Of a stretch of 56,024 bases of DNA, positions 2,997-3,352 are shown one piece after another. The DNA lies in IMG/VR virus record IMGVR_UViG_3300027904_000003, positions 1 through 56,024 of that record. The stretch is one strand, 5' to 3'. This DNA comes from a virus. A program made the translations under genes and the position numbers. The notes under the pieces are model-generated. The model ran no database searches. It had not been told where the DNA came from and saw only the letters and a program-made list of their open reading frames with translations. The stretch's first letter is position 1, and every line of letters begins with the position of its first letter.

Positions 2997-3073
2997 ATAT
3001 ATATATATATATATATATATATATTATTATTATTATTATTATTATTATTATTATTATTATTATTATTATTATT
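2997..3073. repeat. compound microsatellite (AT)14 followed by (ATT)17
   Basis: Counted directly: AT dinucleotides 2997-3024, ATT units 3023-3073. Confidence 0.95.
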
Positions 3074-3164
3074 ATCTTTCTTATTATTTTATTTAACATT
3101 CTTTCCATCTAGTCTCCTGTAACACCACCACTTTCTTTGTCTGTAGTTTTCTTTCCCACCATTT

Positions 3165-3352
3165 TTAACCTAACAACCTAACAACCTAACTTTTCGAAAC
3201 AATCTTAACAAACCTAACGTACCCTTTAATTTTTTTTTTTCGTTTTTTATTTTTATTTTTATAATTTTCAAAATGATTTAAACCTTTTGAAATAAGGGCG
3301 TTAATAAGTTAATAAGTTAAGAAATGTTAGGTTGTTAGGTTTGTTAGGTTAA
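3165..3352. repeat. CCTAAC-iteron inverted repeat (26/27-nt arms) around a 135-nt AT-rich core; candidate origin or architectural element (locus A)
   Basis: Left arm TTAACCTAACAACCTAACAACCTAAC at 3165-3190. The right arm 3326-3352 is its reverse complement with a 1-nt indel. An extra CCTAAC lies at 3214-3219. The core holds T12 and T-rich runs and TTTTCGAAA. Confidence 0.85.

Follow-up and report, generated by a model that had tools for sequence, protein, structure and literature searches.

Replication origins or regulatory elements?

What is the function of two repeat elements that face each other across the replication genes of an uncultured phage? The elements, here called locus A and locus B, lie in the IMG/VR virus record IMGVR_UViG_3300027904_000003, of which positions 1 to 56,024 (56,024 nucleotides, the window) were analysed as one stretch. 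Each locus carries two arms of short hexamer repeats (iterons) of the CYTAAC type, placed in opposite directions around an A/T-rich core. The loci themselves are mutually inverted and face each other at both borders of the replication module. It is proposed, with a confidence just short of an even chance, that the two loci form a pair of replication origins, or of sites at which an initiator is loaded, of the kind found in the Staphylococcus aureus pathogenicity islands (SaPI) with their self-loading helicase. The arrays would probably be read by the winged helix of a primase-MCM fusion protein encoded between the two loci. A regulatory role for the same arrays is a serious rival.

Architecture of the two loci

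Locus A is placed 3' of gene 1670-2530 and 5' of gene 3418. Its features, listed in order of position, are the following.

2594-2618, plus strand: intrinsic terminator, an 11-bp stem with 6 G-C pairs and a T-rich tail; it closes the plus-strand unit (gene 1670-2530) and is the outer boundary of locus A
2997-3093, no strand: microsatellite A, (AT)14 at 2997-3024 followed by about 17 perfect ATT units and by degenerate ones (Tandem Repeats Finder array 3022-3093)
3165-3219, plus strand: left arm, five iterons pointing right, CCTAAC at 3169, 3177, 3185 and 3213 and CTTAAC at 3205
3191-3199: TTTTCGAAA, within the left arm
3220-3299, no strand: core, 80 nt, 82% A+T, proposed unwinding region; it contains T11 (3230-3240), TATAAT (3260-3265), TTTTCAAAA (3265-3273) and TTTTGAAA (3285-3292)
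3300-3352, minus strand: right arm, six iterons pointing left, GTTAAT at 3300 and 3308, GTTAAG at 3316 and GTTAGG at 3326, 3334 and 3343
3388-3765, plus strand: -10 box GCGTATAAT lacking a -35 box (TATAAT at 3388-3393), ribosome-binding site (GGAGG) and gene 3418-3765

The layout of locus A is one of five plus six iterons around an 80-nt core. Its outermost iterons belong to the inverted repeat TTAACCTAACAACCTAACAACCTAAC, which pairs 3165-3190 with 3326-3352 (26 versus 27 nt, the right arm having one additional T), and about 70 nt separate the left arm from microsatellite A. The terminator, the (AT)14(ATT)17 tract, the inverted repeat and the start of gene 3418 were all found where the original prediction, made by reading the letters of the window, had placed them. 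That prediction took the whole 135-nt span between the outer repeats as the core. The span contains more iterons (CTTAAC at 3205, CCTAAC at 3213 within AACCTAAC at 3211-3218, GTTAAT at 3300 and 3308 and GTTAAG at 3316), which reduces the real core to 80 nt, and the T12 run reported there is in fact a T11 run.

Locus B has these features, given from the late genes to the replication module.

24128-24727, minus strand: 3D-domain gene, with its stop codon at 24128
24065-24128, no strand: microsatellite B, (AGT)18, which is (TAC)18 on the gene strand, together with a short (TA)~5 run; between the 3D-domain stop codon and the terminator
24028-24054, minus strand: intrinsic terminator, the end of the late (structural/lysis) operon, directly outside locus B
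23946-24011, minus strand: outer arm, exact reverse complement of 23808-23873
23874-23945, no strand: core, 72 nt, 86% A+T, with TTTTGAAAA and TTTTTCGAAAA palindromes; proposed unwinding region
23808-23873, plus strand: inner arm, on the side of the replication module; CCTAAC at 23819, 23828, 23836, 23846 and 23864 and CTTAAC at 23855, all toward the core
23749-23721, minus strand: promoter TTTACA-17-TATAAT (11/12 match), 3' of locus B
23665-23291, minus strand: MGK-family gene, which opens the minus-strand replication module

Locus B is a perfect inverted repeat of 66 nt (23808-23873 and 23946-24011, 100% complementary) with a 72-nt spacer and six plus six iterons, and its outer arm as single-stranded DNA has a hairpin energy of -81 kcal/mol (z = -19). 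The same order of parts had been claimed for both loci. The face-to-face layout stands, but the order does not, given that at locus B the terminator (24054-24028) sits between (TAC)18 and the inverted repeat.

The iterons are concentrated in the two loci to an extent that composition does not explain. The sequence AACCTAAC occurs 13 times in the 56 kb, every time inside locus A or B (1.98 expected; 0 of 100 shuffles reach 13), and the spaced pair CYTAAC-N3-CYTAAC has eight matches, all inside the loci, with 0.04 expected. TTTTCGAAA is also confined to loci A and B in the whole window. Bare CCTAAC is not enriched across the window (26 versus 24); the signal at the loci is the clustering and symmetry of the iterons, not the abundance of the hexamer. 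Counting the GTTAAT/GTTAAG variants, there are 11 CYTAAC-type iterons in locus A and 12 in locus B, spaced 8-10 bp apart. This is the spacing noted at the outset, and its mean of about 8.7 lies below the one helical turn with which it had been equated. The description of the arrays as having a classic iteron look was imprecise: classic iterons are direct repeats of 17-22 bp, and those present here are inverted arrays of 6-mers.

The cores of A and B are unrelated to each other in sequence. Promoters were called as sigma-70-type with a threshold of at least 9/12 matches, and none was found in the core of either locus. Both loci are placed between a terminator and a downstream promoter and are therefore probably untranscribed. 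In nearest-neighbour stability, microsatellite A is the least stable duplex of the window (z = 4.8-5.0), and both cores as well as microsatellite B are within the 12 least stable segments. Other intergenic regions are comparable, which makes duplex stability supportive and not unique to the loci.

Conservation in uncultured relatives

Both loci are kept in synteny by dozens of uncultured relatives, at a protein identity of about 60%. The relatives carrying locus B were collected through their SNF2 protein (about 60-72% identity) and those carrying locus A through the Zn-ribbon protein, the 115-aa basic product of gene 3418-3765, which is the sole plus-strand gene converging on the replication module. 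A search of related contigs for arrays at module boundaries had been recommended; elements were found at both syntenic positions, with the iteron word drifting. At locus B the order is a lysozyme-like gene, an A/T-rich stretch, an iteron arm, an A/T-rich core, an iteron arm, about 60-200 nt, the promoter aGGGGTTTAC-17-TATAAT and the MGK gene. At locus A it is the homologue of gene 1670, a G+C-rich stretch, a TA-rich tract, arm, core and arm, GCGTATAAT and the Zn-ribbon gene, the last being kept 3' of locus A in most relatives. The arms of the relatives measure 22-66 nt and the spacers mostly 65-95 nt, with a core A+T fraction mostly of 0.65-0.9 (range 0.57-0.90).

The iteron word is CTYAAC in most genomes and CCTAAC in the window; others have ATCTTAAT, ATCTCAG, TTTGATAC, AATAGTAA or CTGTAAT, and the contig L060 has TTGTCRCA. 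Loci A and B of one genome have the same word class in the four contig pairs compared. The polarity of the iterons is absolute: for the motif C[CT][CT]AA[CT] in 27 loci, left arms contain 89 plus-strand and 0 minus-strand matches and right arms 0 plus-strand and 90 minus-strand matches, against a background of 0.14 motif per 70 nt. The arms are often perfectly complementary, inter-iteron spacers included (66/66 in the window; 48/48, 41/41 and 37/37 in relatives). Such symmetry indicates concerted evolution or a selection for symmetry or pairing.

The claim that the loci face each other and bracket the replication module was borne out in the window and in two relatives, these being the two in which both loci can be placed on one contig. 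In both of these complete relatives the replication genes remain bracketed, B being near 29.3 kb and A near 56.4-57.0 kb. The spacing between arm and promoter is not fixed. It varies from 36 to 216 nt overall, and at locus A the distance from arm to TATAAT is 36-58 nt. G+C-rich repeats take the place of the Zn-ribbon gene after the locus-A element in two relatives. Relatives have their own G+C-rich arrays of 35-41 bp, which in two cases stand directly 3' of the locus-A element.

The long microsatellites, regarded earlier as part of the element, did not hold up in this role. Only the window genome, among those compared, has the trinucleotide runs (ATT)17 and (TAC)18, and what recurs is the (TA)n tract near locus A, found 135-180 nt outside the left arm in 4/8 relatives (n = 6, 8, 15 and 15); at locus B a tract of this type was seen in 1/27 relatives. 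On these comparisons, the microsatellites are accessory and fast-evolving and no defining part of the element.

Palindromes of the form T4-[C/G]-A4 (TTTTGAAAA, TTTTCAAAA and TTTTCGAAAA) were observed in 14/27 cores of the family, with 37 matches versus 1.2 in composition-matched shuffles; those of the window are at 3265-3273, 3285-3292 and 23913-23935. Many relatives also have in their cores a conserved TTGAAA...CCTTATAGA block, at a distance of about 25-30 nt from the arm nearer the promoter. These features may be a site for a second protein or for priming.

An exact 16-mer scan of IMG/VR gave 37 matches, about the chance level, in unrelated contigs. A few of these contigs carry inverted arrays of CCTAAC-type repeats themselves, around a short core, among them L018 (7232-7334) and L008 (3897-3992), of which one is G+C-rich. 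They have no common protein with the window except the YqaJ nuclease and are taken as analogous, not as homologues; their arrays suggest that the layout recurs widely in phages.

The primase-MCM helicase as candidate binder

The replication module encodes one protein that combines a helicase with a primase.

14028-16991, minus strand: primase-MCM fusion, 987 aa, with a DnaG-type primase (Zn ribbon and Toprim) and an MCM-like AAA+ helicase, assigned by Pfam

The sequence matches of this protein in the PDB are MCM chains. An AlphaFold2 model of residues 705-987 has a predicted winged helix at residues ~902-953 (about nt 14133-14288), with the order H-beta-H-H-beta-beta and a pLDDT (predicted local distance difference test) of about 90. 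The C-terminal winged-helix domain is present in all members of the family. Its recognition helix and wing are nearly invariant where the iterons have a YYAAC core, and differ in two distant genomes with unrelated iterons. The nomination of the primase-MCM protein as a candidate binder has gained from its predicted C-terminal winged helix and from its co-occurrence with such elements in distant cultured phages, described below.

No Orc1/Cdc6-type AAA+ protein was detected among the proteins scanned, the only MCM-like AAA+ protein being the primase-helicase, and the scan of about 30 proteins revealed no RepA, O or gp38-like initiator and identified no separate initiator or loader. Homologues of the primase-MCM protein on plasmids are limited to two large phage-like plasmids, and the GTDB matches of the helicase are phage contigs binned into unrelated metagenome-assembled genomes.

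Two small proteins encoded beside the loci are also to be considered. The Zn-ribbon protein of gene 3418-3765 is an alternative candidate for the iteron binder. The MGK protein has a highly conserved core, RGxLAGIxLEEMTDEQLKREIINANSVLYKA, and an acidic tail, and in its homologues (L043, L055 and L099-L149) the N-terminal 25-60 residues are swapped between relatives. These N-terminal forms are a beta-hairpin-like VTVPEGLxAGDxF, a CPHCGG zinc ribbon, a helical form or a long extension. Pfam gave no significant family for 17 MGK homologues. The N-terminal module of MGK swaps without a change of the iterons, and MGK is weakly disfavoured as iteron binder by this fact.

Analogous elements in distant cultured phages

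The Weizmannia phage Youna2, the Bacillus phage BSP19 and Sparcetus, a Microbacterium phage of cluster EF, have a primase-MCM protein about 30% identical to that of the window and little else in common with it beyond replication proteins. Each has two inverted iteron loci, one of them less than 1 kb upstream of the primase-MCM gene.

Youna2 (L290), 6679-7017 and 39703-39997: CTTT[AC]C at 10-bp spacing; 7/7 pattern matches in the loci, 0.03 expected
BSP19 (L303), 1134-1318 and 21160-21520: GAAAG/CTTTC arrays
Sparcetus (L304), 9160-9300 and 32520-32650, in the record near 33.2 kb and 56.6 kb: CACAATC/CTCAATC inverted arrays

In Youna2 one locus is directly upstream of a helix-turn-helix (HTH) gene and the primase-MCM gene, and in BSP19 one locus is upstream of a luxR-type HTH gene and the primase. 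In Sparcetus one locus is about 170 nt upstream of the primase and the other is at the genome's right end. The second BSP19 locus has a TA-rich, microsatellite-like run, and a similar block of about 60 nt stands after each of the Sparcetus loci. Judged from these comparisons, the element is family-wide in the uncultured group and has analogues across much more distant phages.

The literature searched turned up no origin or initiator site for phages with a DnaG-primase/MCM fusion. In a Microbacterium phage genomics paper searched by term, 'origin of replication' had no match, the passages on repeats and intergenic regions concern other motifs and none of the passages retrieved mentions the element.

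Comparison with known origins

The closest known layout is that of the SaPI origins, in which 6-12 penta- or hexanucleotide iterons are split by an A/T-rich centre, with at least two per side and in opposite directions (PMC9371898). The SaPI Rep protein is a self-loading helicase of the MCM clade whose C-terminal winged helix reads the iterons; two hexamers are proposed, and in SaPI5 a primase is fused to it (PMC9371898; PMC7581432). The iteron sequence varies among SaPI elements, and each has one copy of the origin, immediately downstream of rep (PMC9371898; PMC7581432). The loci of the window resemble these origins in the number of iterons (11 and 12), the A/T-rich centre and the opposed polarity, in an iteron sequence that differs between elements and in the encoded MCM-like AAA+ helicase with a fused primase and a predicted C-terminal winged helix. 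On the other hand, the element is not next to the helicase gene: two mutually inverted copies are placed at the module borders, 7-11 kb from it. The window also differs from the satellites in being a 56-kb tailed phage of lytic type with its own PolA, and in having a DnaG-type primase and long near-perfect palindromic arms. It is the combination of two inverted border copies, such arms, a DnaG-primase/MCM fusion and an autonomous phage that, by this comparison, is new with respect to the SaPI origins.

The Bacillus phage SPP1 has two origins, oriL and oriR, that share their repeats and have an A/T-rich unwinding element; one of the two is intergenic and bracketed by transcription signals (PMC6316719). 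For the second site, fork stalling and a switch to concatemer synthesis have been proposed (PMC6316719). The proposed origins of the window would resemble these in being two in one phage, with common repeats and an A/T-rich unwinding element. SPP1 differs in its direct repeats and in having a separate origin-binding gp38, a loader and a DnaB-type helicase, whereas the window has inverted arrays of 6-mers.

Satellite P4 has octamer iterons at two cis sites (ori and crr), bound by the C-terminal winged helix of the alpha primase-helicase. The alpha protein is a superfamily 3 (SF3) helicase and crr is a pair of direct 120-bp repeats; unlike the loci described here, the P4 sites are not known to form symmetric palindromes around an A/T-rich core. 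Inverted sites around an unwinding region are known from other domains of life and their viruses. The archaeal oriC has inverted origin recognition boxes around a DNA-unwinding element, read by a separate Orc1/Cdc6 initiator. The origins of simian virus 40 (SV40) and the papillomaviruses and oriS and oriL of herpes simplex virus (HSV) are palindromic, with SF3 or SF2 initiators that carry N-terminal DNA-binding domains; the HSV oriL is a long perfect palindrome between promoters. With these archaeal and viral origins the window loci would have in common that inverted initiator sites flank an A/T-rich unwinding region, an arrangement suited to a symmetric head-to-head loading of helicases. The difference from the archaeal case is that none of the module proteins scanned in the window is an Orc1/Cdc6 initiator.

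Arrays read by ribbon-helix-helix (RHH) proteins, such as R1 parC/ParR, the omega heptads of pSM19035 and TP228 ParG, consist of short repeats at 7-11 bp spacing, direct or inverted, sometimes flanking a promoter. They are contiguous or bracket a promoter core, and a promoter-less A/T-rich gap of 70-90 bp is not known from them; moreover, no RHH protein or partition ATPase is encoded in the window. The classical iterons of plasmids, lambda and SPP1 are direct repeats of 17-22 bp with a dedicated initiator. Of the hallmarks of a classical iteron origin, a putative A/T-rich unwinding element is present at the loci of the window, but direct repeats of 17-22 bp and DnaA boxes are not.

Proposed mechanism and alternative explanations

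If loci A and B are origins, the C-terminal winged helices of the primase-MCM protein would bind the 5-6 inward-pointing CYTAAC iterons of each arm, and one helicase ring would be assembled on each side of the 72-80 bp A/T-rich core. The core would then melt and the fused DnaG-type primase would begin synthesis bidirectionally. Both elements may fire, or one may fire and the other, bound by protein, may serve as an auxiliary site or fork barrier; P4 (ori/crr) and SPP1 (oriL/oriR) are precedents for the use of two sites.

A more elaborate version is distinctly unlikely to be right as a whole. It holds that the pair are head-to-head origins that load double hexamers of a bacterial-virus MCM: the six winged helices of one ring would match the six polar iterons of an arm, and each of the two arms would serve one of two rings. 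The placement at the borders would cause the module to be replicated first or would bring it, as a loop, into a replication factory, the second copy would at a later stage become a fork trap that switches replication to concatemer synthesis, and the (TA)n tracts or microsatellites would tune the melting.

The original prediction had read the iterons with their A/T-rich element as an origin, a reading that remains the leading one on the strength of conservation, polarity and the match to the SaPI, with a regulatory rival that has to be taken seriously. The analysis shows the anatomy of the loci, their conservation, the strict polarity of the iterons, the presence of two copies, the linkage with primase-MCM phages and the predicted winged helix; the identity of the iteron binder, the melting of the core and the initiation of replication are inferred. 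Several observations weigh against the origin reading. Locus B is about 7 kb and locus A about 11 kb away from the primase-MCM gene, unlike in the SaPI. Foldseek searches with the winged-helix model returned MCM4 chains and MarR/ArsR-type winged helix-turn-helix proteins at weak E-values, and the covariation between winged helix and iterons, which is consistent with binding, is confounded by phylogeny. DnaA boxes (TTATCCACA, at most one mismatch) have 18 matches versus 16 expected in the window and 0 in the loci. The GC skew is uninformative for an origin, being monotonic and dominated by gene orientation, with nearly all genes on one strand. Two other regions could compete as start sites: 700-1100 has a classic origin-like signature (divergent promoters, 37-bp repeats and a switch of gene orientation), and the 17-bp direct repeats at 55724-55865 could be the true origin. 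Finally, both window loci are directly upstream of promoters, and the cores of Youna2 and BSP19 contain consensus sigma-A promoters and suit a regulatory element equally well.

These last points lead to the explanation that survives best after the preferred one, unlikely as it is on the whole evidence: the loci are operator or enhancer arrays whose arms are coated by a phage DNA-binding protein that represses or activates both inward-facing promoters at the borders of the early/replication module. Candidate binders are the Zn-ribbon protein (3418-3765), a sigma-like HTH protein (20291-20833) and the product of the HTH gene beside the Youna2 and BSP19 elements. The position of the loci just inside terminators as well as upstream of promoters favours it, as do the Zn-ribbon gene kept beside locus A in most relatives, the arms of Youna2 and BSP19 that flank consensus promoters and precede an HTH gene, the TTGAAA...TATAGA-like block and T4-[C/G]-A4 palindromes in the cores of many relatives and the presence of other repeat arrays beside promoters in the window genome. 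However, the cores of the window contain no acceptable sigma-70 promoter and the TATAGA block of the relatives does not end in the T that is invariant in a -10 box. Arm and promoter are at no conserved distance (36-216 nt), and the element also occurs without the Zn-ribbon gene. The Zn-ribbon and MGK proteins match no known DNA-binding regulator family, the MGK N-terminus is swapped with no change of iteron, and an A/T-rich gap of 70-90 bp with 5-6 polar 6-mers to either side would be an unusual operator layout. Phage origins commonly contain a promoter, from which transcription activates them, so that the origin and the regulatory readings can both hold.

A structural or boundary element, acting through a bound protein or a cruciform, is a quite improbable explanation. 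Such an element could be a fork barrier for a switch from theta to concatemer replication, a topological insulator that loops the module or a recombination boundary. The (near-)perfect complementarity of the arms, inter-iteron spacers included, the strong hairpin potential, the position beside terminators at both module borders with conserved bracketing and the fork-stalling precedent of SPP1 all speak for it. A purely structural role leaves unexplained, on the other hand, the tandem polar iterons and the conserved length of the A/T-rich core, and the relatives examined showed no case of an inverted or exchanged module. Acting as a barrier is moreover compatible with, and usually secondary to, the binding of an initiator. 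A MITE (miniature inverted-repeat mobile element) in two copies would account for a size of about 190-205 bp, terminal inverted repeats around an A/T-rich centre and two intergenic locations, but this reading has a negligible probability and is effectively refuted by synteny, with the same positions kept at about 60% protein identity, analogous pairs in far more distant phages, arms that are tandem iteron arrays and not unique terminal repeats, unrelated A and B cores and no transposase. Packaging (pac/cos) and partition sites were rejected on synteny, position and gene content.

Genome setting and other repeat regions

The window is probably the whole phage genome of about 56 kb, cut within a repeat array, given that the same 37-bp repeat array is present at both ends and that the contigs of the relatives are 55-60 kb long. 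No close cultured relative was found: a megablast search with the window's first 25 kb had no match, tblastn with the MGK protein gave no match and the best PolA match has 32% identity. Neither Rfam families nor tRNAs were detected in the window.

Nearly all genes are on the minus strand, with the late genes upstream of locus B. From B to A, the module includes genes for an SNF2 helicase, a VRR-NUC nuclease, the sigma-like protein (the HTH gene at 20291-20833), a ligase, RNase H and the 987-aa primase-MCM protein, as well as a YqaJ exonuclease, a dUTPase, a ThyX-like enzyme, a dTMP kinase, PolA, an HD protein and small Cys-rich proteins. The small Cys-rich proteins are encoded at 3418-5919, and several have CxxC...CxxC ribbons like those in the N-terminal parts of endonuclease VII/HNH phage proteins.

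Between the terminator of locus A and its microsatellite there are about 380 nt of G+C-rich DNA. This stretch (2620-2990) is conserved and contains a 47-nt exact repeat (2657-2703, identical to 844-890); it ends with the palindrome GAACTGGATCCAGTTC followed by Ts (about 2926-2949). No Rfam family matches this stretch, which may be a small transcription unit without a coding role.

Other repeats of the window are as follows.

1-125, 881-980 and 55889-56024: G+C-rich tandem repeats of 37 bp (CGCGGCGGCTAAAAGCTTCGGTCTGCGCAAAACGCGC), at both ends of the window and once inside it
707-827 and 987-1107: inverted repeat of 121 nt, 88% complementary, a duplicated promoter region in divergent orientation around the 881-980 array
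31155-31270: G+C-rich repeats of 18/36 bp in gene 30393-31298
35876-36411: repeats of 33 bp inside a 1350-aa gene
42585-42652: (TGTTTC)11 within overlapping open reading frames
54311-54367: perfect 27-nt palindrome with a 3-nt loop
54702-54849 and 55622-55769: duplicated block of 148 nt with a perfect TTGACA-17-TATAAT promoter on the minus strand
55724-55865: 8.4 direct repeats of the 17-mer TCCAATATTACCAATTA, preceding the second 148-nt copy

At 54-56 kb there are strong promoters and the GC skew is about -0.6; this is probably an early region with its own regulator or iteron array.

Significance

If the origin reading is true, siphoviruses that replicate with a DnaG-primase/MCM fusion, a large group of which most are uncultured, would gain a concrete prediction of an origin defined by sequence. 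The logic of a self-loading helicase and inverted short iterons would then extend from staphylococcal satellites to autonomous phages of lytic type. The rule of two copies, which goes from Firmicutes-like to Actinobacteria phages, raises the question whether these are two origins or an origin and a barrier or enhancer. Given that cultured phages carry the same kind of element, the prediction is directly testable. If the regulatory reading is true instead, the elements would mark the master switch of the early/replication module in the group. Should the double-hexamer version be correct, the paired loci would represent a bacterial-virus counterpart of the symmetric MCM loading of archaea and eukaryotes.

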